DNA of 64,000 nucleotides from a candidate division FCPU426 bacterium (GTDB lineage: Bacteria; Oederibacteriota; Muellerivitia; Muellerivitales; Muellerivitaceae). The stretch is from the NCBI GenBank assembly GCA_963771075.1, contig CAVYSE010000028.1:128001-192000 (forward strand), given 5' to 3'. The number at the start of each line of letters is the position of its first letter. Position 1 is the stretch's first letter. The translations under genes and the position numbers were made by a program. Under the pieces are notes generated by a model. The model searched no databases and was not told the DNA's origin. It saw nothing but the letters and a program-made list of their open reading frames with translations. This document shows, piece after piece, positions 1 to 60,852 of this stretch.

Positions 1-1264
1 CCAGGTGGATCGGTTCATTCCCCACCTCATAATACCGGTCAAAAAGCACCTCCCCGGTCGGCAGTCCGAGGGACTCGGAGGTTTTGGGGGCCACTGAGGG
101 AATACTCAAAAAATGATGCTTGGACATCATGGATTTGATGTTCCCGCCTAAAATATTCACCATTTCTTTCAACGCGTCCTCGGAAAGCTCGGCGGGTACG
201 AGACCCTTTCCATCTCCGAACAAATAACTCGCCGAATCGGCGGCGGTTTTATCCGTGACCGTCAGGCGGACCATTAGGTTTCGGGCCCCGAGGATCCGGA
301 TATAAGCTGAGATTAAGGACGTGCCGGCGCGGAACCCTTTTTTGCCCGTCCCGATCGGGGTCTTTCCCATCATCGTGGCCCAAAGATCCAGCAGGAACCG
401 GTCGATCGCCTCCAGATTCAGGGCTCCTTCCACCGACACCGCTTGGCGCACATGGTAACCCACGACCTGATCGCCGTAAGGCAGGCTGTTCAGGCTGCCT
501 CCCAGAAAAAGCGCGGTCTCCGAAGACCCCAAAAACAGAATGCCCACCGCGCCAAGGGATTCCCGGCAGCGGGTCAGGACGCTTTTCTTCATGTCCGTCT
601 CGAAATAGATCATGACGTTGCGCATCAGGAGAAGGTCGACCGGTTTCTCCTCCAGCCACTTTTCTTTCAGGTTGATGTTCCTGAATTCCACGCTGAGCCG
701 AATTTCATCTTTTACTCGATAGTTGGAACCTACAGGCTCCATATAACGTTCCAGGTACTGGGGCGGGAGGCCGCGCCGGCTTTCCACGCCGTTATAAATC
801 CCGGATCGGGCTTGTTCGAGGACGGTCTTGGAAAAATCGCTGGCGATGATCCGAAAGTCCCAGTCCATCAAATAGGGGAACTTGTCATGGATCATCATGG
901 CCAGGCTGTATGGCTCCTGCCCGGTCGAGCAGGCGGCGCTCCAAAGGGTCAGGGATTTCGAATCTTTTTTGCGATGGACGATCTCCGGCAAGACCCGGCT
1001 TTCGAGAATCTGGAAAAAGGCCGGATCCCTGAAAAAATAGGTTTCTCCCGGCACCAAAGACTCCACTACCTTTTGGGAGAGGCTTCCCTGCGGATCCTTC
1101 TCGATGGTTCGCATCAGATCCTGCATAGAGGAAACTCCCCAGGTTTCCAGGTTCGGTTCCACCAGGGACAAGAGCAGATCATCCCGGTCGTTTTCCAGAT
1201 TGACCCCGCATTGAGCCAGGACCAACTGCCGAAGAGTCTCAAAAAAAGAGGTCTGAACGCTCAT
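1..1264 (-). CDS. cheR: CheR chemotaxis methyltransferase fused in frame to a C-terminal CheX-like phosphatase domain (runs off the window edge)
   Basis: Hand translation from the ATG at 1264 (ATGA overlap with the cheB stop) shows no stop down to base 1. CheR motifs GETYFFRD, WSAACSTGQEPYS and MRNVMIYF are followed after ~AVSVEGA by the CheX-like DALKEMVNILGGNIK...LSIPSV. Absent from the ORF track because there is no stop in the window. Confidence 0.85.
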   Translation of the reverse strand, partial: MSVQTSFFETLRQLVLAQCGVNLENDRDDLLLSLVEPNLETWGVSSMQDLMRTIEKDPQGSLSQKVVESLVPGETYFFRDPAFFQILESRVLPEIVHRKKDSKSLTLWSAACSTGQEPYSLAMMIHDKFPYLMDWDFRIIASDFSKTVLEQARSGIYNGVESRRGLPPQYLERYMEPVGSNYRVKDEIRLSVEFRNINLKEKWLEEKPVDLLLMRNVMIYFETDMKKSVLTRCRESLGAVGILFLGSSETALFLGGSLNSLPYGDQVVGYHVRQAVSVEGALNLEAIDRFLLDLWATMMGKTPIGTGKKGFRAGTSLISAYIRILGARNLMVRLTVTDKTAADSASYLFGDGKGLVPAELSEDALKEMVNILGGNIKSMMSKHHFLSIPSVAPKTSESLGLPTGEVLFDRYYEVGNEPIHL

Positions 1265-2331
1265 GGTTTCTTTCCCTGTGGAACAGCGTGGTATCCCTCG
1301 ACCCAAACCGCTTCCGCAATCTCCGCCGCGATCGACCCGACGTCCAGAACCTTGTCGGCCAAGCGGGCTTTCGCCACCACTCCTGGCATGCCCCAAACCA
1401 CGCTGGAAGCCTCATTCTGGACCAGGATGGAAGCCCCTTGGGCCCTCAATTTTTCCGCACCCCTAAACCCGTCTTGGCCCATGCCGGTCAAGACCACCGC
1501 CAAGGCATTGGGTCCCATCACCTTGGCGGCGGACTCAAAAAGCACGTCCACCGAAGGCCGGCATGAATTGACCGCGGGCCCCTGGTTCAAGGCGATTCGA
1601 ACGCCTTCCGGGGACGGCCGCAGCTCCATGTGATGGTCGCCCGGAGCCAATCGGACCATGGGACCCTCCAGCCGTTCCCCATCCCGCGCTTCGCGGACAT
1701 CCAATCCTGTTTGGTGGGCCAACCGAAGCGCCAGGGTTTCGGTGAATAACGGGGGAAGGTGTTGGACGATCAAGATGGGCACTTTCCAGGGGGAGGGAAG
1801 CCCGCCCAATACCGTCAAGAGCGCGGCGGGCCCCCCCGTGGAGGATCCAATGAGTACCGCTTCGGGCCTGGACTTGCGTGGGAGCTTCATCTCTAAGGAC
1901 CCGGCCGTGAATCCTTCGGGGGATCGCTTCAACAGGGCCTTCATTTTGGGGATCAGGCTTTGCCGGATCTTATCCAGAGCCTCCTCCCGGCTGCCGCTTC
2001 CCTCGGGTTTTTCCTCGTAATCCTGGGCTCCCAGCAAGAGGGCTTCCACCGTGGTCTGGGCTCCCAATTTCGTAAGGCTGGAATACATCACCACGAGCAG
2101 GCGGGGATACAGGGACCTTATTTGCTTGAGGGTTTGCAAACCGTCCATTTCGGGCATCTCGACGTCCAGCAACACCAGGTCGGGATGGAACAGGGGTATG
2201 ATTTCCAGGGCTTTCCGGCCGTCCGGAGCCGTGCCCACGACGGTGAGCTCCGGGTCCTCATCCAGGACCCGGACTAGGGTCTGCCGGACAACCACCGAAT
2301 CGTCGACCAGCAGCAATCGGGCCTTAGCCAT
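1261..2331 (-). CDS. cheB: Chemotaxis response regulator protein-glutamate methylesterase
   Basis: N-terminal receiver (LVDDS, LLDVEMP) plus methylesterase motifs GSSTGGP, VQHLP, RPSVDVLF, LTGMGQDG. Confidence 0.97.
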   Translation of the reverse strand: MAKARLLLVDDSVVVRQTLVRVLDEDPELTVVGTAPDGRKALEIIPLFHPDLVLLDVEMPEMDGLQTLKQIRSLYPRLLVVMYSSLTKLGAQTTVEALLLGAQDYEEKPEGSGSREEALDKIRQSLIPKMKALLKRSPEGFTAGSLEMKLPRKSRPEAVLIGSSTGGPAALLTVLGGLPSPWKVPILIVQHLPPLFTETLALRLAHQTGLDVREARDGERLEGPMVRLAPGDHHMELRPSPEGVRIALNQGPAVNSCRPSVDVLFESAAKVMGPNALAVVLTGMGQDGFRGAEKLRAQGASILVQNEASSVVWGMPGVVAKARLADKVLDVGSIAAEIAEAVWVEGYHAVPQGKKP

Positions 2332-2710
2332 GGGGTCCTTCCCCGAGGAGTCCGATCAACTCCAGCTTCTTTTTAAGCACATCCTTCGTGAAAGGCTTGG
2401 TCACATACTCGTCGGCGCCGGCATCGAACATTTTTTCCATGTTCTGCGCCTGGGCCTCGCTGGAAACCACCACCAGGCGGATCTTCCGGTACTCCGGGCG
2501 CGAGCGTACGGCCATAATGAATTCATACCCGTTCATCTCCGGCATATTCCAATCCACCAGGACCAGGTCCAACGCTCCGGACTTGCCCAGCAGGTCCATG
2601 CCCTCCAGTCCGTTTCCCGCTTCCTGGACCTCAAACCCCAGTTCGCCCATGATCTTCTTGAGGATCATGCGCATGGCCTTGGAATCATCCATAATCAAAA
2701 CTGATTTCAT
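2324..2710 (-). CDS. cheY: Single-domain response regulator CheY
   Basis: 128-aa receiver: IMDDS, LVDWNMP, YVTKPF; lies within the che operon. Confidence 0.93.
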   Translation of the reverse strand: MKSVLIMDDSKAMRMILKKIMGELGFEVQEAGNGLEGMDLLGKSGALDLVLVDWNMPEMNGYEFIMAVRSRPEYRKIRLVVVSSEAQAQNMEKMFDAGADEYVTKPFTKDVLKKKLELIGLLGEGPHG

Positions 2711-2755: not shown

Positions 2756-4261
2756 TTAAACCTTGAACTGGCCCACCAGGGCCTGAAGGTCGGAGGCGGT
2801 CCGGTAGAGGTCCTTCGCCGCGGCCTGGATATCGGTCGCGCCCTTGGAGGTACTCTTGGTGGCCTGGGCCACCCCCGAGATGTTCCCCGCGATCTCGGTG
2901 GAACCCCGGGCCGCCTCCGCCAGGTTTCGGCTCATTTCGGTGGTGGTGGCCGCCTGTTCCTCCACCGCGCTGGCGATGGTCGTGGAGATGTCGTTGATCT
3001 TGGAAATGATCTCACTGATCTTGCCGATGGCCTCCACAGAAACATGGGTGCTGTTGCGAATGGACTGGACGCGTTTCTCGATGTCCTCGGTGGAACGCGC
3101 CGTTTCCTTGGCCAATTCCTTGATCTCATTGGCGACGACGGCGAATCCACGCCCTGCTTCACCGGCCCTCGCCGCCTCAATGGTGGCGTTCAAGGCCAGC
3201 AGGTTCGTCTGCTCATTGATCGAAGTGATCACCTTCAAGACTTCGCCTATTTCGGCGCTGGCCTGGCCCAGCTGTGTCACGTGGGAATTGGCGTCCTTGG
3301 CGATCCGCACCGCGGACACGGCCACCTGGGCGGCTTCGCTGGAGTTTTGGGCGATTTCCTTGATGCTGGAGGACATGCCCTGGGTGGCCGAGGACACCAC
3401 CTGCAGGTTCTGGCTCACCTGGCGGGCTCCGGCGGAAACCGCGTTGGCCTGGGAGGAAGTCTCCTGGGCGGCCACCCCCACCACGGTCGCGGTCTCGGTC
3501 AGCTGGCCGGAGGAGGCCAAAAGGGAGCGGCCCGTTTCCACGAAGGATTGGACCAGCCTCTGCATCCTCTCCGCGAAAAGGTTAAAGGCCCCCGCGATCT
3601 CGCCCAACTCGTCCTTCGAATCCAACTCCAGGCGCTTGGTCAAATCACCCTCTCCCCGGGCGATATCCTTTAACCGGTTGAGGAGTTGGTAAAGGGGGAC
3701 CGTCAGCTGTTTTTGAAGCGTGGAAGCCACTAGGTATGAAATCAACATGGACAGGAGCCAAACCGCGACCGTTAATCCGAGGAACCGGTAGAAGCGGGCG
3801 CTCATATCGGCCATGTCCGACTCCAGGAAGAGGGTCCCGGATTTTTCCCCGGCCATTTGAATGGAGTGGAAATATCGGATCGTGTTCCCCTTAAACTCAA
3901 ACCCCTCGTTCCCCAAAGGCGGCAGGGTCGCCTGGCTATCCTGTTTGGCGGACCGGTAACTGGCGAAGGTATTGCCTTTGGAGTCGTAGAGGCATGCGGT
4001 CAGGATGTGGGGGTTGCCCTTGAGGGTCGCCAGTAAATCGCCCGCGGTCTTGGTGTCATTGAAGGCCAGGGCCGCAGTGCTGTTGTCCCCGATCACCTGG
4101 GCAAGATTCTCCAGATTCTGTTCCATGACGGTCGGGTAGGTCACCCTTTCCAGCAAAATGAAGGCCAGGCAGGCGGTCACCAGCGACACCGAAGCCGTGA
4201 CGGTGGTGATGAACATGATCTTGCGGGCAATCCCCATGTCTTTGAAATTAATAGTGAGCAT
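2756..4261 (-). CDS. Methyl-accepting chemotaxis protein with YfiN-like (CHASE8-type) periplasmic sensor and HAMP domain
   Basis: Two TM segments flank [17 protein letters not shown]...[18 protein letters not shown] (GDLTKRL...[11 protein letters not shown]); signalling hairpin [35 protein letters not shown]. Confidence 0.93.
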
Positions 4262-4346
4262 TCTTTTACCCCCAGCCGATTCTGTGACGATGTCGATTAC
4301 AGGTCAATGTCCGTTTCCCCGGAAGGAATTCCAGGAAGTGTAGCAC

Positions 4347-4937
4347 TCAATTACCTTCATATATTTTACATATTTGCAACAATTTAGAGCTTATCGAAAG
4401 ACCCGCCTTCTTGGCGGCCCCCACGTTTACCATCAGGGAAATTTTCGATCCCACCATATCAAAGAGAATATCCCCGCCTTTGAAAGGAAAGTTCTCGATC
4501 TCCGACACCGTCAAGACGCTGGAACCTTTTAATCCCGCGAGGATGGTTGAAACCCGGTCCTTTTCGCTGTAGCAAATGAAAAGAATTTGGCACTTTTTAA
4601 GGGAAGCCGCAGTACCCGCCCCAAATGCGGCGAAACGCTTGAGCTTGATGGGATGACCCCCGGCCTTTTTGCCATTGACGGCTGAATCCAGGACATCCCC
4701 AAAGGGATCCTCTCCCAATACTCCGATCACCAGGGGAGCGCCCGCCCCCGGCATGGCATCGGGAGGCCAGGTCACGAAATTGGCGAATTGGTAGAGGGCT
4801 GCCGCCTTGACGGAGTATTCGGAAAAATTGGCCTTGGCCGGGATACCCCCGGCCAGGAGCGCGAGAGATCCGATCGCCATCATGAAGGCTTTCCGCTTTT
4901 TTGAAAAAGTTAACTTTTTCAAGAGTCCCTCTTTCAC
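4347..4937 (-). CDS. yfiR: YfiR family (DUF4154) periplasmic regulator
   Basis: Signal peptide, then EYSVKAAALYQFANFVTWP, IGVLGEDPFG, CQILFI, LTVSE and GLSISSKLL, the YfiR family pattern. Confidence 0.9.
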   Translation of the reverse strand: MKEGLLKKLTFSKKRKAFMMAIGSLALLAGGIPAKANFSEYSVKAAALYQFANFVTWPPDAMPGAGAPLVIGVLGEDPFGDVLDSAVNGKKAGGHPIKLKRFAAFGAGTAASLKKCQILFICYSEKDRVSTILAGLKGSSVLTVSEIENFPFKGGDILFDMVGSKISLMVNVGAAKKAGLSISSKLLQICKIYEGN

Positions 4938-6088
4938 GAAACGCTTAATAGTTCACCACCACTTGGCCATAAACCCGCGGGACAATCTGGGTAGGATTGA
5001 CCCCAATGGTTTGAATGGTTTCAGAATGAGTGCCCTCCAGGTCCATCCCCCACAATCCCAGGGTGAGCTCTTCATCAACCTTCAAGGTCGATCCCACATT
5101 CACCCGGGTGTAGGGAGAGAGGGTGGGGAGAGCAGGGCTCAAATTGTTATCAGTCTGAAATGTGGCGTCTACCCAATAGCAATCCCCATTCAGTTTCCAA
5201 CCCGGCAAGGCTTCCCAACTGACCCGGCCACTGACGATATTGTGGGGAGGGGTGGCCCCCAATTCGGAGTTGGAGGAATTCACCATAGCTTGGTCATAGT
5301 CCTCGTAGGTGTAAGCCAGGGCGAATTGGAACGTCTTCACCGGGTTCCATTTAGCGCTCAATTCACCACCCCAAATATCCCCGGAGCCGTTGTTTTGCGC
5401 TTGATAAATGGGAATTTGATTAGGAGCCAATGTATTGCTGATAGTTCCCCCGGCTGGAGAATCGAAGGTTCCCGTCACCCACTCAAAAGACACCAGTTGG
5501 GAATAGCTGTTATAGAAACCAGCCAAATCTAATGAAAATTCCTTCGTTAAGTTGGCGCGATAGCCCAACTCGTAGGCCGTTAAAACCTCGGATTGTAAAT
5601 TGGAGTTAGGTATCAAAGCTACGTAATCCCCCGGGATCGGGGACTCGGTGACATAAATATCCGACGATTCCAAAGCCTGGGAGGGAATCCTCACCGCCCG
5701 GGATACCGCCCCCCAGAGGGTGTCTTTCGAATCCGGGGTAAAGAGAATACGTCCCGAGGGCTGCCATTCCCAACCCGTGTAGGAGTTGTTCTCAGCTTTG
5801 ATCCCGCCCGTCACGTAAAGCAGGTCCGGCGCCAGGGTGAAACGATCCTGGAGGAAAACATTGTAGATGTTGAGGCTCTGGTTCGACGGGGTGTAATACC
5901 AGTAGACGGGATTCAGGAACTGGTCGGAATAATTGCGGAAACCGCCCCCCCAAGTGATCTCGTTCCAATCGTTCAAATGGAACCGATGCTGCCCCTCGGC
6001 GTCGAACTGGCCCAGATTGGTGATGGTAGGTGCTATATACCCGCTGATGGGTGTTTGCTGGCTTTGGTTATCATAACTGTAGTAAACC

Positions 6089-7501
6089 CACTCTTGTCCT
6101 AAATAAAGGACTAAAAAAAGACACCTCCGACTGAAGTAGAATTGGGTTAGTCGACAAGCCCAAAGCGACGGTTACCAGCCGTCGCTACTTCAAACATCCG
6201 GAGGCGTATTTCGATGGTACCACCAACCAGTCTTTTTGCCCAAGTGTTGAAAATTGTGGATCGCACGGCTTTTGAACGAATTGTGCGGGAGTTTGAAGCC
6301 GAAAAACACGCCAAGGGGTTCAGTTGCTGGAATCAGTTTGTTTCCATGCTTTTCTGCCAGATGGGAGCCGCCCATTCCTTGAGGGAAATCTGTGGTGGCC
6401 TCCACACGGCCCTTGGGAAATTGACCCATTTGGGTCTTTGCGAAGCACCCACTAAATCCACCTTGGCTTACGCTAACGCCAACCGTCCTTGGCAGGTTCA
6501 GCAAAGTCTTTTCTACCATCTGCTATCGAAGTGTCAGCTACAGGCGGCCATCTCGAAGAGGAAATTCAAGTTCAAGAATCCCCTCTACAGCCTGGACTCC
6601 AGCACCATTGATCTTTGTTTGTCAGTCTTCGACTGGGCAAAGTTCCGTAGGACCAAAGGGGCCATCAAACTCCATCTCTTGCTGGATCATCAGGGATACT
6701 TGCCCTGCTGGGGACTCGTAACGGAGGGAGGCGTGCATGACGTGAAAGTGGCTCAAAAGCTGGATTTTCCGGTGGATTCAATCGTAGTGATGGATCGGGG
6801 ATATGTGGATTTCTTTCTTCTGGCCCGATGGACGTTCCAAGGCGTGTGGTGGGTGACCCGTGCCAAGATCAACATGGCCTACGAGGTGGTGAAGAACCTG
6901 CCGGTTCCGAAAACGGGCAACGTCCTGAAGGACCAAGTGATACGGTTAACAACGTTTCGGTCACAGGAAGCCTACCCGAAAGAGATGCGACGAGTGGTGG
7001 TATGGGACGAAGACCAGAAGCGGGAACTCGTATTCCTTACCAACCACATGGGTTTTGCTGCCTCGACGGTGGCGGCCATCTACAAGGAACGTTGGCAGAT
7101 CGAGTTGTTCTTCAAGGCTCTCAAGCAGAACTTACGGGTGAAGACTTTCGTAGGGACCACTGAGAATGCTGTTCAGACGCAGATTTGGACAGCATTGATT
7201 GCCATGCTGCTGTTGAAATTCCTTCAACTGAAGAGCCATATCGCCTGGAGCCTGTCCCACTTGGCGGCCATGCTGCGGATGAATCTATTGACCTACCGCG
7301 ATTTGTGGGCTTGGTTGGATGCACCATTCCTGGTGGCGAGATTGGAACCGGCGGAAAAACAGATGGAATTAATACCCTCGTGATTTGGACAGCATCCGGA
7401 CGAAAGGGGGGGGCTTATCCCTGGAAATTCACAAACCTGTCCAAAATCGCTTGTTTTTCTTGGGGGGCAGCGGTCAGATTGAGTTGTTTAGGATAGCAGT
7501 G
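6089..7501 (+). mobile_element. IS4-family insertion sequence, 1413 bp
   Basis: Imperfect terminal IRs CACTCTTGTCCTAAATAA / TTGTTTAGGATAGCAGTG (14/18), flanked by a 9-bp direct repeat TAGTAAACC at 6080-6088 and 7502-7510. Confidence 0.93.
6214..7383 (+). CDS. IS4-family DDE transposase (DUF4372-type N-terminus)
   Basis: SLDSSTI, VVMDRGY and the IS4 Y-R-E-K signature YKERWQIELFFK; intact 389-aa ORF inside the IRs. Confidence 0.95.
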   Translation: MVPPTSLFAQVLKIVDRTAFERIVREFEAEKHAKGFSCWNQFVSMLFCQMGAAHSLREICGGLHTALGKLTHLGLCEAPTKSTLAYANANRPWQVQQSLFYHLLSKCQLQAAISKRKFKFKNPLYSLDSSTIDLCLSVFDWAKFRRTKGAIKLHLLLDHQGYLPCWGLVTEGGVHDVKVAQKLDFPVDSIVVMDRGYVDFFLLARWTFQGVWWVTRAKINMAYEVVKNLPVPKTGNVLKDQVIRLTTFRSQEAYPKEMRRVVVWDEDQKRELVFLTNHMGFAASTVAAIYKERWQIELFFKALKQNLRVKTFVGTTENAVQTQIWTALIAMLLLKFLQLKSHIAWSLSHLAAMLRMNLLTYRDLWAWLDAPFLVARLEPAEKQMELIPS

Positions 7502-8605
7502 TAGTAAACCAACGCCTGAATTTGCGAATCGTCTTTGAAACTTCTGGTCCATTGCCCTTGTAAATAAGCGTTTTGATCCACAGAGGTGTTTTGATCCATA
7601 AGCGGTTGACTATTGGCAATATTCCATAAGGGAAGGGAAATAGTGGCTATCTGAAGGTAACTAAAATATCCTTTTTGCGCTCCCCCCTGGATATTCAGGT
7701 CATTGCCTTCCTCTCCATGGTAATCCAACCGGAAACTTGCCCGGCCGTCGTTCCATCCGTCGTTCCACAGGCTTCCGTTGCTATCCTCGTTGTATTCTTG
7801 GAAAGGCTGATAATAGGAGGCATGTGCATCGATTTTATAAAAAAGGCTGTCGCCCAAACTGCCTCCATAGCGAGCCGTTTGGACGCTATCCATGGGAAGA
7901 CCCTGGGCTTGTGCCACGGCCGTTCCAGTGGAATAAACGGGCATCCCCTCCGAGGTCGAAAGGTATAACCCCTGGGCCGTTTTGGCGTCCTTGGTGATGA
8001 TGTTAATCACGCCGTTGATAGCGTTGGAGCCCCAAAGTGCGCCTCCGGGCCCTCGAATCACTTCGATGCGGTCTATCTCTTCCAGTGGGATATCCAATTC
8101 ACTCCAATTCACCCCGCCTGTGATGGGTTGGTAAACGCTTCGGCCGTCGACCAGCACCAGCATCTTATCGTTGTATTGGTCGTCAAAACCCCTGGCGCTG
8201 ATGGCCCACTGGTTATTGTTTTGGCGGGCGACCTGGACACCGGGAACCATGGTCAGCAAGTCGGGGATCGAACGGGCCCCGCTTTGCTGGATGTCCTCCT
8301 GGGTGATGACGAAAATAGCCGAGGTGGCGTTCATCAGGGATTCGGCCTTCTTGGAGGAGGAGGTCACCACCACGTTCAACCCCATCAGGCTTTCCAAGCT
8401 GACCTGGGTCAGGTCCTGGGTGGGAGCGGGCGTCGCGGCGGCTGGCGCACCCTGGGGAGTGTCGGCCAAAGTGGCCACCGGCGTGGCCTGCTCCAGGGCT
8501 GGCTTCACGTCTTGCGCCGGGAGGAATCCTGTCTGGGCGAGGCTCAACAAGAAGCCCAGGACTGGGATTTTGATCCACAGAGATCTTTTCATAGCGCAAT
8601 CTCCT

Positions 8606-9058
8606 TTAACGATTATCCAACCGCAAGACTTCTTCCAACCGCAGGGCTAATACCAATCCCCCGCCCCACGGGCAGGCTCCCCGAATGAGACGCCTCACTT
8701 GGGAGGGGACGGTCGAAGGCGGTTCCTGGAACCGCTCCGGGTCCATCTCCACCACATCTCCAAGCTCATCGACCATCAAACTGACCGGTTCCCCCGGCAT
8801 TTTTAATACCAGGTGGGCGGGACGGGAGGGCGTTTTCGTCCCTATGCCCAAGCGATGGTTCAAGCCGATAACGGTTAAAACCTGGCCCCGCAGGTTCATG
8901 AGGCCCTTTACTTCGGGGTGGGCCAGCGGCACCGACGTGACCGCCCCTCCCCGCACCACTTCAGCCACGTTCAAGGCCTCGATTCCAAAGGTCATGTCGC
9001 CCGCCTTAAAAAGACAGAAGGGTTGGGGTCCGTTCACGGGCATGCCGGGGGAGGTCAT
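8606..9058 (-). CDS. cheW: Chemotaxis coupling protein CheW
   Basis: VPLAHPEVKGLMNLRGQVLTVI and LMVDELGDVV; overlaps the cheA stop. Confidence 0.93.
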   Translation of the reverse strand: MTSPGMPVNGPQPFCLFKAGDMTFGIEALNVAEVVRGGAVTSVPLAHPEVKGLMNLRGQVLTVIGLNHRLGIGTKTPSRPAHLVLKMPGEPVSLMVDELGDVVEMDPERFQEPPSTVPSQVRRLIRGACPWGGGLVLALRLEEVLRLDNR

Positions 9059-11256
9059 GCGATTCCCAATCCTTCAAAAAATTCGGGCTGGTTCCAGCCC
9101 TTTTCGCCCCCGGCCCGAAGGGACTCCAACCGGAGAAGGCCTTCCAGGTCCACTAGGTCTGTCGATTGGCCCCCGATCGGCAGGGTTCCCCGGATGCCCG
9201 GGCGGCCCAAGCAATCGGATATCTCCGCGGAAGGGCTTTCAAGAATATCCAACGCTTCCTCCACCTCCAGGGCGAAGGTTTTTCCCTTATGGGAGCAAAC
9301 AACAGCTTGCGTTTTTTCATCCGGCTTTTTGGATGGGCCCACGAAGGAATCATCCCTCGACAAAAGCCGGGCGGATCTTAACAGTAAAAGAAGCTTGCCC
9401 TCATGGGGAACGGTTTCCACAGCGCCGGTGGATTGGACTTCCTCCGGCAGGAACGAAGCCAGCCTCAGGACCGATTCCAGGTCCAGGGCAAGGCGGTCCA
9501 TCGAAGCGGTCTTAAAAACCAAAAACTTGCGGGAAACCCCTTCCTGGGAAGTTGGGTCCGTACGGGCCTGCGGAACGGACTCTGATTCACTAAGGGTTTT
9601 AAGGAATTCAATGCCGGCCTTTTGGGCCAATCCGCGGACATCCAGGATCAGGGTCACCCGCCCATCCCCCAGGATCGTGGACCCCGACCAAACGGGGATG
9701 GTCTTGAGGTGATGGCCCAGCGGCTTCACGACTACCTCTTGGAAATCGCCAACGCCCTCCAGGAGCAAACCAAAATCACCGCGGTCATAGTTCAACACCG
9801 CGATATAGCGGGTTCGCTGGGCCTGGTTGGTATCCGGTGGAAAGGCGAGGACTTCCCGCAGGATGACCAGCGGAAGAAGTTTCCCCCGCAACCGATAAAC
9901 AGGCGCTTGATGGATTTTATTTAACTCCTTGGACGCCTTTTCGGGGTCCAGACGGATCAATTCCTTGAGGGCGGCCCGGGGCAAGACAAAGGTCTGACCT
10001 CCGGTTTCCACCAGCAGGGCGGGAAGCACCGCCAGTGTCAGGGGAATTCTCAGGCGGAAAAGGGTGCCTTGGCCTTTTTTCGATTCCACCTCCACCTTGC
10101 CGCCCATACGGTCCAGGTTGGCTTTGACCACATCCATCCCAACCCCCCGGCCCGAGAATTGGGTGACTTCCTTCGCGGTGGAAAAACCCGCTTGGAAGAT
10201 CAGCTGGGAAGCCTTTTCCATGTCCAGATGGGCGGCTTCTTCTGCGGTAATCAGTTTTTCCTGCACGGCCTTCGCTCGGATCTTCTCAAGGGAAAGACCC
10301 GCCCCGTCGTCGGAAACCTCGACCAGGACCTGGCCCGATTCATGGGAGGCCTTTAACCTCAATTTTCCATCGGGGGACTTCCCGGCCTTTTGTCGATTCT
10401 CCGGGCTTTCCAACCCATGGTCGACGGCGTTGCGCACCAGATGGGTCAAGGGATCCCGGATCAATTCCAGAAGACCCTTATCCACCTCGGTTTCCCCGCC
10501 GATCATTTCCAAAACGACTTTCTTGCCGCAGGCGTCCCCTATATCCCGCACTAACCGGGGAAACCTGTTCCAAAGCACCGAAATGGGCTGAAGCCTCGCT
10601 TTCATCACCTTTTCCTGCAAGCGCATGGAAAGGTCGCTGAGGGGCTGGAGGCGGGAGATCCATTGTGGATTTTTTTCAGAAAGCGCCCATTGAAGGGCTT
10701 GGTTGCGGGCCAGGACCAATTCACCGCTGAGATTCATCAAGTGGTCCAATTGGGCCACATCTATCCGCAACGCCGTATCCTCGATAACGGAGGGGGTGGA
10801 TGACGATCCCTCCGGGGTTTTGGGGGAAACGGAAGCGGAAACTTGGGAAGAATCGGACGGAAGGGTTGGTGAAAGTTGGGCAAGCGCCTCCATTCGGGAA
10901 AGAATAGAGGAATCATCGGCTTTGCCTTCGGTCTGGTCGGTTTCCACATGGGATAGGATTCGGCGAATGGAGTCCACCAGGGCGAGCAGACCTCCGGTCA
11001 TGACCCGGGTGATCTTGAGTTTATCGGCCCGCAGGAGACTAAGAATGTTTTCACCTGAATGGGCCAGCTTAGCCAGTCGGGCATAGCCAAGAAATCCGCT
11101 GGTTCCCTTGAGGGTGTGGAGCGTTCGATAGATCTGGGCGAGTTTTTCCTTGTCAGAGGGGTTCTTTTCATAACTCATGAGATCCCGCTCGAACTTATCC
11201 AACCCCTCGTAACTTTCGAGGAGAAACTCTTTTGTTATTTCATCCATTTCGGCCAA
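9055..11256 (-). CDS. cheA: Chemotaxis histidine kinase CheA with an additional C-terminal CheW-like domain and no evident P2 domain
   Basis: Hpt YRTLHTLKG, dimerisation LDHLMNLSGELVLARNQ, HATPase HLVRNAVDHG / DDGAG / GRGVGMDVV, P5 domain, then a second CheW-like region. Confidence 0.96.
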   Translation of the reverse strand: MAEMDEITKEFLLESYEGLDKFERDLMSYEKNPSDKEKLAQIYRTLHTLKGTSGFLGYARLAKLAHSGENILSLLRADKLKITRVMTGGLLALVDSIRRILSHVETDQTEGKADDSSILSRMEALAQLSPTLPSDSSQVSASVSPKTPEGSSSTPSVIEDTALRIDVAQLDHLMNLSGELVLARNQALQWALSEKNPQWISRLQPLSDLSMRLQEKVMKARLQPISVLWNRFPRLVRDIGDACGKKVVLEMIGGETEVDKGLLELIRDPLTHLVRNAVDHGLESPENRQKAGKSPDGKLRLKASHESGQVLVEVSDDGAGLSLEKIRAKAVQEKLITAEEAAHLDMEKASQLIFQAGFSTAKEVTQFSGRGVGMDVVKANLDRMGGKVEVESKKGQGTLFRLRIPLTLAVLPALLVETGGQTFVLPRAALKELIRLDPEKASKELNKIHQAPVYRLRGKLLPLVILREVLAFPPDTNQAQRTRYIAVLNYDRGDFGLLLEGVGDFQEVVVKPLGHHLKTIPVWSGSTILGDGRVTLILDVRGLAQKAGIEFLKTLSESESVPQARTDPTSQEGVSRKFLVFKTASMDRLALDLESVLRLASFLPEEVQSTGAVETVPHEGKLLLLLRSARLLSRDDSFVGPSKKPDEKTQAVVCSHKGKTFALEVEEALDILESPSAEISDCLGRPGIRGTLPIGGQSTDLVDLEGLLRLESLRAGGEKGWNQPEFFEGLGIA

Positions 11257-33573: not shown

Positions 33574-34176
33574 TTATTGGTCGAACTTAAACCGATAGGG
33601 GATCCGGAGGCGGACCGCGACCGGCTCGTCTCCCGCGTAAGCGGGGGCGAAAAGCGATTGCTGGGCGGCCGCCAGGGCGGCCTCGTCACAGCCATAACCC
33701 AAACCCTGGATCAATTGCACCATTTTAACCGCACCTGTGGCGTCGATGTCCACTTGTAAAATCACCACACCCTCGATATTGGCCCTTTTCGCCGCCTCCG
33801 GATAGACCGCCTTCACCTGGTTGATGAAATGGGGCAGGCGGCTGACCTCGGCAATCGAGCGGTAGGGGCCCGTGCCGTTCCCGGGAAAATCCGCCGGGCC
33901 CGGGGAAAGGGCCGGTGGGGAAACTGGTTTTTTCTCGGGTACTTTCAGGGGAGTCGTCCGATGCTTGAAAAAAGGTTTTTGCCAAACCTCGTCTTCCGGG
34001 ACAGGCGGGGCAAGCGCCACGGGCGAGTTGGCGCCGGAGAGGTCCAACATCAGAACATTCAGATCCAACATCCGGCTTCTTCCCAAAAAAAGCAGTAAAG
34101 CGATGAAAAACAGATGTGACGCCAGGGAAACGCCCCAGGGGCCCAGGGGAACGGAAAGCAGGACCCGGGACCTCAA
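33574..34176 (-). CDS. tonB: Energy transducer TonB
   Basis: TM with SLASH, Pro-rich linker, YPEAAKRANIEGVV...GYGCDEAAL. Confidence 0.9.
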   Translation of the reverse strand: MRSRVLLSVPLGPWGVSLASHLFFIALLLFLGRSRMLDLNVLMLDLSGANSPVALAPPVPEDEVWQKPFFKHRTTPLKVPEKKPVSPPALSPGPADFPGNGTGPYRSIAEVSRLPHFINQVKAVYPEAAKRANIEGVVILQVDIDATGAVKMVQLIQGLGYGCDEAALAAAQQSLFAPAYAGDEPVAVRLRIPYRFKFDQ

Positions 34177-34577
34177 GGGTTCACCACCCCCAGGGCGATC
34201 TGGGTGACTCCCGCCTGTCGGGCCAGGTCCAAAAGTTCCACCACCTTGCCATGGGTCACCTGGGCGTCGGCCGAGAGGACCAGGCGCAGGTTGGGGTTGA
34301 GCGCGGCGGCCTCCCGGAGGGCCTGGGCCAGGGCGGGCTTATCGGTTTTTTTATTCTGGTAAAAGATCTCCCCTTTGAGATTGAGCACCAGGGCCTGGCT
34401 GGCCGGGGCGGTGGGGTTGGCCGTGAGGGCCTTGGGAACCTTGACCGGGACCGAGGGAGTGGAAATGAAACTGGCCGTCAACATGAAGATGATCAGGAGC
34501 ACCAGCATGATGTCCACCAGCGGCACCACGTTGATCTGCGTGATGGCCTCATCCGAATCGGGGCTGATGTGGGCCAC
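34173..34577 (-). CDS. exbD: Biopolymer transporter ExbD/TolR
   Basis: INVVPLVDIMLVLLIIFM, ADAQVTHGKVV. Confidence 0.92.
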   Translation of the reverse strand: MAHISPDSDEAITQINVVPLVDIMLVLLIIFMLTASFISTPSVPVKVPKALTANPTAPASQALVLNLKGEIFYQNKKTDKPALAQALREAAALNPNLRLVLSADAQVTHGKVVELLDLARQAGVTQIALGVVNP

Positions 34578-34579
34578 GG

Positions 34580-35203
34580 CTAGCGCTTTTTCTTTCCGGA
34601 ATAAGCGAGAAGCAGGCGGGAAAGGCGGTCGGCGGACGCCAGGGATTTCTTGATCCGGCTTTGGAAATAGTTATAGGCCGCCACTGCGGGAATGGCGATC
34701 AAGAGACCCACCGCGGTGGCCACCAGCGCCTCGGAAACGCCCCGCATGACGACAGTGGGACCGGAGGTTCCCGCGATGGCCAAGTCGTTGAAAGCCTTGA
34801 TGATCCCCAATACCGTCCCGAACAGGCCGATGAAGGGCGCGTTATTGCCCAACGTTCCCAGGACCAGAAGGTTCTTTTCCATCAGCATGCGTTCCTGGAG
34901 GCGCTGGCTTTCCATCACCTGTTCCAGGGCCTCGGGGTCCAGGTCCAGGTTGTCGAGCCCCGCTTTCAAAACGGCCCCCTCGGCGGAGGGAGAAGCCACC
35001 GCCAGCTTTTCGGCCTGCTTGAAGTCCCCCTTGGCCAAAAGTGCCGGGGCTTGGGCTTCCAAATCACCGGTTCCCTGGGACCGTTTCTTGAACTCGCGGA
35101 ATTTTTGGTAAATGACGGCGATGGACCAGAGGGAAAGGAACAAAAGGATGTAGAGAACCCATTCGCCCCCCAGGAGGGCGAAAGCCTTGATGGCTTGAAG
35201 CAT
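34580..35203 (-). CDS. exbB: MotA/TolQ/ExbB proton channel protein
   Basis: APFIGLFGTVLGIIKAF, GVSEALVATAVGL, AIPAV. Confidence 0.92.
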   Translation of the reverse strand: MLQAIKAFALLGGEWVLYILLFLSLWSIAVIYQKFREFKKRSQGTGDLEAQAPALLAKGDFKQAEKLAVASPSAEGAVLKAGLDNLDLDPEALEQVMESQRLQERMLMEKNLLVLGTLGNNAPFIGLFGTVLGIIKAFNDLAIAGTSGPTVVMRGVSEALVATAVGLLIAIPAVAAYNYFQSRIKKSLASADRLSRLLLAYSGKKKR

Positions 35204-35307
35204 GAAAACCTCATGAAAAAGAAATATTAGAGCCGCCGATATTAGCACAGGAGGTACCGCAATTCAAAAGGCACACCAATACAGCCATCCGAATCGATTC
35301 AAAAAAA

Positions 35308-58335: not shown

Positions 58336-60852
58336 ATGCGGTTGCGTCCAATCCCAAAATTTATCAGTCGATTATTTCCCGTCCTGATTCTGATTTTCCT
58401 CGGTACGGCTCCACCCGTCCAGGCTGGAATTTCCAGCCAAGGGACCGACTTTTGGGTCACCTTTCCCCAGGGTGTCAGCGCCAATGACATGCAATTATTC
58501 ATCACCAGTGCGTTGGGAGCCTCCGTTACCATCCAGGCCCCGGGCCCGGGTTTTAACACAACCGCGACCGTGGCCCCGGGCGGCGCGGCCACCATCCTTC
58601 TCCCCCCCTCGCTCGAAGCCACCGCCACCGACGGGATCCAATCCATCGGAATTCAAGTGACCGCCTCGAACCTGATATCCCTGTATGGTTTTAATTACAT
58701 CCCCCAGGGGACGGGCGCTTTCCTGGCCCTTCCCGTGGAGGCTCTGGGGACCCGTTATTTGGTTTCTTCTTATTACAACGAATCGTATGAAGGCAACTCG
58801 ATCCTGGGGAGCGAGTTCGCGGTCGTGGCCGCCCAGGACTGCACCCACGTCACCATCACGCCCCGGGTTAACTTGGGAACCCACCTCGCCAATACCCCTT
58901 ACGGAGTGACGTTGGGGCAGGGCCAGGTTTACCAGCTTCAAGACCAGCTGTTGAACACGGACCTGACGGGCACCCTCATTACTTCGGATAATCCCGTGGC
59001 CGTCATCGGCGGACACCTCTGTGCCTACGTGCCGCTCTATACCCCATCCTGCAACCTTCTTGTCCAGCAGTTCTGGCCCACGCAATGGTGCGGCACCCGT
59101 TTCGTGACCATGCCCTTCTACTCCAGGTCGAACGGGGACACCTTCCGGGTCCTGGCCACGGCCGACGGGACCAGCGTTCAAATCAACGGGATGATCGCCA
59201 GCTTGAACCAGGGCCAATGGTACGAGACCACCGCCAGCGTTCCCCTCTACGTCACCGCCAATAATCCGGTCTACCTGGTTCAATACGCCAACGGCCAGGA
59301 ATGGGACGGCGATCCGAACGCGGACCCCACCATGATTTCCATCCCGCCCATCAGCGAGTTCGCCTCGAATTACCAGGTGGCCAACGAGTCCCTGAGCTTC
59401 ACCGGTAATTACGAGAACCTGCTGGCGCCCACCGCATCGGCGGCTTCCATCTCCATTGACGGGACGGCCTTTCCTTCCGCTTATTGGACCCCCATTCCCG
59501 GGAGCGGCTATTCGGGGATTCAAGTTTCGGTGGCCGTGGGTGTACAACGTTCGACCGGACCCGTCCCCTTTGGGGTGATCGCCTATGGTTTCGGTTCCGC
59601 CGACGCTTATGGCTATCCGGGCGGGGTTTCTTTCACCAGCAACACACCGGTTCCCACCCAAACGCCCGGGGCGCCTTGCTTTACCCTCACCTTCAGCCCC
59701 ACCCCCTCGATGACCTCCACATCCACCCCCAGCCTTTCCCCGACCATTACGCAAACCCGCACAGCCACCTCTTCCCCTACCCCAACCTCAACGCCCACTT
59801 CAACGCGTACTCCCACCCTAACCTTCACCCGCACCTTCACCTCCACCCCCACCGTTACTTCCACTCCCAAGTTCACGTCCAGCCCTACCATCACGGGCAC
59901 CCCAACCGATTCCCCAACTCCTACCGAGACGACCACGGTAACCCTTTCCCCGACATTCACTCCCACGGGCACCTGTACCCCCACCCTCACTCTGACGCAA
60001 AGCCCCACACCTTCCAATACTTCAACCTGGACTTCGACTTTTACCCCAACGGGAACACCCACCTTCTCCCCAACTCCCACGACAACACCATCCATCACGG
60101 TTAGCCCCAGCCCTACCCCTACGGGTTCTCCCACCTCAAGCTGGACCCCATCTTCCACCCCAACTCCCAGCCTAACGCCAAGCCCAAGTTCCACTATTAC
60201 CGGCATTTTCACGGAGACCTATACTCCGGCGATTACCGTAACTTTGAGCTCAACGCCCTCTCCAACCTTTACCCTTTCGGCATCCCTTACCCCCAGTTGG
60301 ACCCTATTCACTGCGACTCCAACCCGGACAGCAAGCCCTACCCCCACTCTTATCCCTACCTTATCAAATACGATCACCGACAGCCCCACCGGAACGCCCT
60401 CGCCCATTCCCACAACCACTTCCCCACCCTCTCCGATGCCGACCTCAACTTCGGACCCTACCTTAACCCCAACCTCATCGGCCACTGTTTATCCCTTTCC
60501 AACCCCATCCGCCACTCCCACGCCAAACGACTCGGTGACGACTGCAGCTTCCCCCACCTCCACGCCCAATTGGAATACTTGCCCGATCGAAGTATGGCCC
60601 GACCCCTTCAACCCTGACCATGCGGTGGGAGGCGTATTGAAGGTGTCTTGTCTGCCCCCCGGTGCTTATGTGGATTTCTACACCGTCTCGGGTGAAAGGG
60701 TTCAACGGGTCCAGGAAACCAACGGATTGGCCCTGTGGAGCGGGCTCAACCGGTATGGTTCTCCCGTCTCAAGCGGAATTTATTACTACGTTGTTATTTC
60801 TGGCGGAAATACGCTTCTGGAGGGAAAAATTCTTCTGTCGAGGAACGAATAG
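58336..60852 (+). CDS. Secreted IgGFc-binding-domain protein with Thr/Ser/Pro stalk and FlgD-Ig/T9SS-CTD-like C-terminus
   Basis: [47 protein letters not shown]; long TPT region; WPDPFNP...YTVSGERV...SSGIYYY...KILL. Confidence 0.82.
59650..60570 (+). repeat. Low-complexity Thr/Pro/Ser coding repeat (mucin-like stalk)
   Basis: Dense ACN/CCN/TCN codons within the 58336-60852 ORF. Confidence 0.85.

Follow-up and report, generated by a model that had tools for sequence, protein, structure and literature searches.

What does an outer-membrane receptor do in a chemotaxis operon? The question is raised by a locus of a candidate division FCPU426 bacterium, in the 64,000 nt that we analysed and call the window (contig CAVYSE010000028.1 of GCA_963771075.1, positions 128,001-192,000). 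Open reading frames (ORFs) and Pfam matches place on its minus strand, in this order, cheA, cheW, a TonB-dependent receptor gene, yfiR, a gene for a methyl-accepting chemotaxis protein (MCP), cheY, cheB and cheR-cheX. The module of receptor, YfiR-like protein and MCP is real and conserved, and at this locus it is broken by a recent insertion sequence (IS). We lean slightly towards the view that the receptor, the YfiR-like protein and the CHASE8 chemoreceptor form a partner-switching relay across the envelope. The parts are laid out as follows.

9055..11256, minus strand: cheA, with Hpt, dimerisation, HATPase and two CheW domains (Pfam), F5-like
8606..9058, minus strand: cheW (Pfam PF01584)
7511..8592, minus strand: 5' part of the TonB-dependent receptor, with signal peptide, linker, conserved peptide, TonB-box-like strand, plug and first barrel strands (Plug E 5e-26; best NCBIfam match NF053590)
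8359..8415, minus strand: conserved N-terminal peptide DLTQVSLESLMGL, then TonB-box-like strand NVVVTS; candidate YfiR-docking tag
6089..7501, plus strand: IS4-family element of 1,413 bp with terminal inverted repeats, transposase at 6214-7383 (NF033592, 273 bits, cut-off 115)
4945..6088, minus strand: 3' part of the TonB-dependent receptor (beta-barrel; PF00593, E 3e-27), continuing the reading frame of the 5' part over the empty site
4347..4937, minus strand: yfiR-like periplasmic protein (DUF4154, PF13689; TOL_0243 family), possibly translated from an in-frame TTG at 4922
2756..4261, minus strand: chemoreceptor with transmembrane (TM) segment, CHASE8, second TM segment, HAMP and MCPsignal (Pfam), about 38 heptads
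2324..2710, minus strand: cheY, single receiver domain (Pfam)
1261..2331, minus strand: cheB, REC and methylesterase domains (Pfam)
1..1264, minus strand: cheR-cheX fusion (Pfam), extending about 20 nt past the window end
33574..35248, minus strand: exbB-exbD-tonB operon (Pfam), unlinked to the module, so that a Ton system is encoded

The sequence-only reading of this DNA had described cheW, receptor, yfiR, MCP and cheY as co-oriented, and the ORF positions bear this out, with 13 nt between cheW and the receptor and 7 nt from the receptor stop to the GTG of yfiR. The domains it expected, CHASE8, DUF4154, Plug and MCPsignal, were all matched by profile search: the MCP carries CHASE8 (E 7e-18; 65 bits against a cut-off of 27) as well as HAMP and MCPsignal, and its sequence contains the YfiN-like pattern that had been pointed out, ACLYD included, while YfiR matches PF13689 (E 3e-35) and aligns weakly, over its full length, with the solved YfiR (E 0.13). 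The receptor said to lie between cheW and yfiR is there by its Plug and barrel domains, as two IS-split ORFs and not as an intact gene. A promoter and terminator scan gave a signal no better than chance.

Is the arrangement conserved? Matches to the sensor region were found at 41 places, spread over 29 of the 31 family genomes, and all 41 were annotated by BLAST against reference domains. By output these CHASE8 loci comprise 11 with an MCP (8 genomes), 28 with a histidine kinase and two fragments; cheA lies in the fetched stretch at 11/11 MCP loci and 0/28 kinase loci, and receptor and yfiR stand directly upstream in 10/11 MCP loci (7 genomes) and 24/28 kinase loci. The eleventh MCP locus, L082, is a che cluster with neither receptor nor yfiR. 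Thus the neighbourhood singled out by the sequence-only reading proves to be conserved beyond chance, the three-gene order adjoining cheA at 10 loci in seven family genomes, and the same front end would drive histidine kinases in most genomes. Seven of the ten MCP triads are intact and three are damaged (the IS in the window, a split receptor at L091 and a yfiR frameshift at L084). The 701-aa ORF at L084 was rejected as a YfiR-MCP fusion of Rosetta-stone value, since the MCP starts at an ATG of its own and yfiR would normally end in a different frame, making a frameshift or assembly error likely; P0004 resembles it. In the congener (G001, L067) the same operon has a whole receptor of 752 aa, 90% identical, and the ratios of nonsynonymous to synonymous substitution (dN/dS), by simple codon counting between the two, are 0.13 (receptor), 0.12 (yfiR) and 0.06 (MCP).

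The genome of the window also holds a second, intact module on another contig (C5), in the order cheA, cheW, receptor (740 aa), yfiR, CHASE8-MCP, cheW, cheR, cheY, cheB, and the two modules belong to different chemosensory classes. Features of class F5, in the available text of PMC10746217, are an extra CheW domain in CheA, the gene order AW...BR and an MCP of 38 heptads. The system in the window is F5-like, with two CheW domains in CheA, the order AW...BR, 134 MCP residues after the tip and, counted by hand, 19 heptads per arm. That of C5 is F8-like, with the order A.W.M.W.R..B of class F8, about 34 heptads by hand count, no HAMP match and a C-terminal tail; MCPs of the 34H type are paired with F8 in what could be consulted of PMC9321776. 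Set against these classes (scheme of Wuichet and Zhulin, as relayed in the consulted parts of PMC10746217 and PMC9321776), the systems described here differ in that the cognate MCP has a protein-sensing type of domain, CHASE8, that two envelope genes adjoin it and that no flagellin was found in the family. In a quick tree (LG+G4) of the receptors, built from 19 of the 28 rows available, MCP-linked and kinase-linked receptors are intermingled, and a topology test run after a tree had been seen rejected a single origin of the MCP-linked modules (approximately unbiased (AU) test, p 3e-45 for all and 5e-53 for the F5 pair) and did not reject the F8 group as a single clade (AU p 0.22); the sensor tree did not settle their origin. 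Because the MCP-linked receptors interleave and a single clade is rejected, either outputs were exchanged more than once or parts recombined, and by the receptor tree the front end appears to have become linked on more than one occasion to che systems, of two classes (F5-like 38H and F8-like of about 34H). Two side observations concern the F8-like clusters: at L083:7246-17626 (G018) such a cluster contains a decayed cassette, with a CHASE8 fragment, a receptor fragment, a displaced yfiR and a different MCP instead, and a PAS kinase/sigma-54 regulator pair lies upstream of F8-like clusters at L007 (1-3241) and its relatives L070, L073, L074 and L082.

Outside the family, a YfiR scan gave at least 519 confirmed matches, of which the best 80 were used and two were dropped as repeats of family contigs. 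In these best 78 loci the gene after yfiR encodes a kinase in 64, an MCP in two, a GGDEF protein in one, something else or a cut gene in eight and none in three, and a TonB receptor lies within 3.5 kb in 64/78, or in 56/65 of those with upstream room. Of the two MCP cases, one belongs to a che cluster of a Phycisphaerales metagenome-assembled genome (MAG); the other is in a Spartobacteria MAG, where neither a receptor nor che genes are close by. The kinase version is also present in a cultured organism, Fulvivirga imtechensis (L144). Since two of 78 distant loci lead to an MCP as against 64 of 78 to a kinase, the cassette is common and its MCP version rare. A Chthoniobacter MAG (L110:1562-16499) has cheR, cheW, MCP, yfiR, four tandem receptors bearing the peptide tag described below, a second yfiR and a CHASE8 gene; two such receptors stand in tandem at L069.

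The first contact in the proposed relay is that of YfiR with the sensor. In YfiN the AAVVF patch is the genetically mapped YfiR site, according to the parts of Malone 2012 at hand (PMC3375315), and the MCP in the window has AALAF at residues 63-67 (4075-4061), matching that position. The Leu-x-Phe core of the motif is kept in 36/36 yfiR-bearing family sensors and lost in 3/3 full-length sensors without yfiR (L081, L082, L093); it is also kept at two loci scored as lacking yfiR, the fragment L083 and the contig-edge gene L104. In the distant set the Phe position is Phe in 72/76 rows, the window included, and Tyr in three. General divergence contributes to the loss of the motif, because two of the three losses lie on long branches. 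The co-loss of the binding motif with yfiR supports an action of YfiR on the MCP sensor, and by homology with the YfiR-YfiN genetics we regard YfiR-CHASE8 binding as highly probable. No solved relative of the CHASE8 domain was found. YfiR itself has a single conserved cysteine column (33/36 family copies); the number of Cys residues over the last 150 aa is one in 25/36 and three in the window copy.

The second contact would be that of YfiR with the receptor. The receptor resembles Cir, and in an alignment made on the congener ortholog a peptide DLTxxSLExLxxL directly precedes the strand aligned with TMVVTA of Cir; in the window this strand is NVVVTS, whose position we take to be that of the TonB box. 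At distant yfiR loci the peptide motif occurs in 57/64 receptors, the seven misses being near-matches, against a background of 0.4% per scanned segment. Among the plug proteins of this genome it occurs in 2/11, both linked to yfiR, and in 0/8 unlinked ones; the third linked receptor, which is split, is a near-miss. (This third receptor-yfiR pair, at L008:9868-12755 on G000:C3, has its receptor as two ORFs, a YfiR fused to a TPR repeat and no adjoining CHASE8 gene; an orphan yfiR at L009:9422-10015 on G000:C7 adjoins neither receptor nor sensor.) The same peptide also begins a 362-aa barrel of another family, PF13557, upstream of yfiR (L118:8684-9769), of which 76 of the best 119 listed homologs match the motif strictly. 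In PF13557-type barrels yfiR lies directly downstream of 6/6 with the peptide (L118, L201, L243-L246; five called by pattern, L245 by eye) versus 0/69 without it, four of the 69 having less than 400 nt downstream and L209 (a 5'-cut gene beside yfiR) and the fragment L213 being excluded; in one search 15 of 45 barrel matches lacked genomic loci. The barrels that carry the peptide could form a single clade (AU p 0.49), and the comparison suggests one case of the peptide beyond the receptors that is independent of them, probably of one origin. No solved relative of the PF13557-type barrels was found.

Structure prediction of YfiR with the receptor, which the sequence-only reading had suggested, went the expected way to a limited degree: co-folding the congener receptor with its YfiR scored 0.57 against 0.31 for the best of three controls, with contact agreement between runs of at least 79% and partner pLDDT of at least 86, weak and without a returned interface. 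On the benchmark, the mark was reached by 116/157 solved and 2/215 mismatched pairs, and at 0.60 or less by 18/157 and both mismatches. Comparatively through the shared peptide, and weakly through the co-fold, the receptor is thus indicated as a YfiR partner, and binding of YfiR to the peptide is predicted with rather more confidence than doubt.

At the locus in the window the receptor itself is interrupted. It consists of two ORFs, a 372-aa Plug half and a barrel half, around an IS4-family element on the opposite strand, and the 5' ORF runs into the element and ends at a stop at 7474. A 9-bp target duplication occupies 6080-6088 and 7502-7510, and removal of the element in silico leaves the receptor frame open over 741 aa. 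As expected of the IS4 family, the element has a DDE transposase above the NF033592 cut-off, terminal inverted repeats and a target duplication. The genome has ten full copies, eight identical and two at 99.9%, and a separate 9-bp duplication flanks each of the ten; the insertion is therefore a genuine and recent one, and an assembly artefact is ruled out. For the empty site, contigs from 4 of 21 listed runs were examined. The IS-free allele is present in those of three runs from three studies (X1, X3, X5), where exactly 1,422 bases, the element and one duplicate, are skipped, with shorter-side overlaps at the joint of 144, 39 and 48 letters; no such joint was seen in run X7. No junction of the IS with this flank occurs among the pieces listed, beyond which lie 131 more, and the best-matching run may be the source sample. 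The break of the receptor is not general, as there is an IS-free allele in other samples and a whole gene in related genomes. The 372-aa remnant retains signal peptide, tag and plug, and could serve as an ungated decoy or be degraded. The IS allele next to IS-free alleles amounts to a natural knock-out.

How might the parts work together? In the proposed mechanism, in which the two binding events, the gating and the direction of the output are inferred, YfiR would sit on the periplasmic AALAF patch of the chemoreceptor and fix the state of the MCP. Exposure of the N-terminal peptide of the receptor would then draw YfiR off, much as YfiB does via a surface overlapping the predicted YfiN site (available portion of PMC4655355), and the released MCP would reset CheA-CheY phosphorylation, to which CheB and CheR would adapt. 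That the exposure is gated by ligand and by TonB acting on the adjacent TonB box is plausible, if somewhat less than evenly so. A wider proposal is more tentative still: the portable peptide of about 15 residues (DLTxLSLEELMxL) on unrelated barrels may be a general YfiR docking tag, which in receptors precedes the TonB box, so that ligand- and TonB-driven movement would uncover it, strip YfiR off a CHASE8 sensor and set a kinase, cyclase or chemoreceptor. The claim from which this analysis started, that a surface ligand controls chemosensory phosphorylation through a protein relay, is thus strengthened by the CHASE8 sensor, the triad with che genes, the co-loss of motif and yfiR and the shared peptide, and is narrowed in two ways: the receptor in the window is disrupted, and a surface ligand acting via TonB is one of several possible inputs, because the outer-membrane partner need not be TonB-dependent.

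Several points weigh against this relay. The motif is present in 27/27 family receptors, a circular count that carries no independent weight, the motif having been drawn from those receptors. The contrast of 6 with 69 barrels counts as about one event, because the peptide-bearing barrels fit one clade and the peptide-less ones are mostly kin. The co-fold score lies where the tool errs more often than not unless the guess was likely beforehand, and as no interface was returned the co-fold does not demonstrate the peptide as the contact. TonB gating cannot be general, because a TonB plug is lacking from the PF13557-type barrels that bear the peptide, and 9/65 distant yfiR loci with upstream room have no TonB receptor within 3.5 kb. 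Finally, the damage to 3/10 MCP triads suggests dispensability or assembly error.

An alternative that we consider unlikely is that the receptor merely imports a small molecule, which YfiR or CHASE8 then binds, with no contact between receptor and YfiR. The plug, the TonB-box-like strand, the resemblance to Cir and the encoded Ton system would all suit transport, both barrel families could be channels, and the fold of YfiR resembles a periplasmic ligand-binding domain (PMC4655355, in part). Import would nevertheless leave unexplained why the periplasmic peptide is common to two unrelated barrels, and this only beside yfiR; moreover, no inner-membrane uptake genes were seen in the annotated family modules, by a crude BLAST annotation, and the weak co-fold signal lies above the controls. 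Alternatively, the barrel might only anchor the peptide, in which case no external ligand would be involved and the signal would come from how the barrel is assembled or turned over, or from membrane spacing. YfiB has been proposed as a sensor of envelope geometry (PMC3375315, in the sections available), and the barrels seem interchangeable, yet purifying selection acts on the entire receptor (dN/dS 0.13 at 90% identity) and the runs of four tagged receptors at L110 and two at L069 fit many ligands better than one anchor, which makes this reading improbable. That receptor and yfiR are passengers, which arrived together with the sensor gene and have ceased to act on the che pathway, is very improbable, for in spite of the IS knock-out, the damaged copies L091, L084 and L083, the split third receptor of this genome and L082, where a che cluster runs without either gene, there are seven intact triads in che clusters, dN/dS is low, decay of the sensor motif is confined to loci that have lost yfiR, and the IS-free allele recurs in three studies.

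If the partner-switching relay is right, what would it control? The genome has three cheA-like genes, six MCPs and four TonB domains, and a cluster at about 6700-49200 of G000:C7 (L197-L199) encodes a complete hook-basal-body, the MotAB stator, FliM, FlgK and FlgM. Flagellin_N, Flagellin_C (PF00700), FliD and FlgL had no match in this genome, and Flagellin_N (PF00669) gave no match in any of the 31 genomes of the family, of which 17 reach a completeness of 90% or more; flhA is present in 27/31, as is fliM, by which an absence of flagellar genes altogether is ruled out. This is a lineage with motor and hook and apparently no filament, in which CheY may act on FliM. Ordinary flagellar swimming is probably not the output, because no flagellin was found in the family, a divergent flagellin being possible. 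In this genome flgE is in pieces through frameshifts (L199:7056-9180), as a pseudogene or by assembly error. Through such a relay, chemosensing would extend to molecules that do not themselves get as far as the chemoreceptor, in a lineage with motor and hook and no flagellin, and protein partner-switching from the outer membrane would be an input mode unlike small-molecule or binding-protein sensing. The shared peptide opens the relay to a cheap binding test.

Much of this is already known in outline, in that the parts are catalogued and an MCP output was named in 2012. In FecA-FecR-FecI cell-surface signalling, a TonB-dependent receptor signals inward via an N-terminal periplasmic element; a TonB-dependent receptor with such an element as signal route would be common to both, whereas here no STN domain, anti-sigma factor or extracytoplasmic function (ECF) sigma factor was detected and a soluble adaptor and a phosphorylation cascade take their place. 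YfiBNR of Pseudomonas aeruginosa shares the DUF4154 periplasmic protein, the TM-CHASE8-TM-HAMP sensor with an AAVVF-type patch and an outer-membrane partner in the operon. There YfiR keeps the sensor repressed until the outer-membrane partner sequesters it, and for such switching here the co-fold offers weak support. It differs in having GGDEF in YfiN where the present sensor has MCPsignal within a full che operon, in using the Pal-like lipoprotein YfiB where we find a beta-barrel with an N-terminal peptide, and in the four conserved cysteines of YfiR, which are missing here; no ORF for YfiB (a Pal/OmpA-like lipoprotein) is among the Pfam matches of the operon, a genome-wide search not having been made. 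The module may work like YfiBNR by analogy without being a member, given the lack of GGDEF, of YfiB in the operon and of the four-cysteine pattern. YfiR uses one surface for YfiB and for the predicted YfiN contact, as far as the available text of PMC4655355 goes. Malone 2012 (PMC3375315) already names MCP and kinase outputs in silico (Discussion; Polaromonas, Table S4) and, in the parts consulted, left open the input to many YfiR-sensor pairs without YfiB; a term search of the accessible text and 8 supplements did not return 'TonB'. The receptor-YfiR-CHASE8 cassette is a candidate answer to that input question, across many phyla (at least 519 yfiR-like matches).

NCBIfam curates a trio in the same gene order, NF053590 (TOL_0244 TonB-dependent receptor), NF053591 (TOL_0243 YfiR-like) and NF053592 (kinase near YfiR-like), which are the best matches of our receptor, YfiR and MCP sensor half, with a kinase there and a chemoreceptor here. 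The YfiR of the window scores 126.9 bits with NF053591, above the cut-off of 125; NF053590 stays below its cut-off of 645 (428 for the ortholog at L067, 476 for the paralog at L007), as does NF053592 (174.7 over MCP residues 11-230, cut-off 194), and a kinase-type family locus likewise scores below the cut-offs of NF053590 and NF053592. The receptor and YfiR pairs beside kinases or cyclases that the sequence-only reading mentioned are matched for kinases by this trio. Its remark that no characterised case is known to feed a chemoreceptor agrees with our finding no mechanism for receptor and YfiR in the literature searched (at title and abstract level, most subscription journals lying outside the search), and has to be qualified by the MCP output of YfiR/YfiN-like pairs that is in print in silico in the portion of PMC3375315 cited above.

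Two further features of the window may be recorded. The CheR-CheX fusion (1-1264) is also found in the congener, and L084 has two separate genes. Positions 58336-60852 encode an 838-aa protein with an IgGFc_binding domain.

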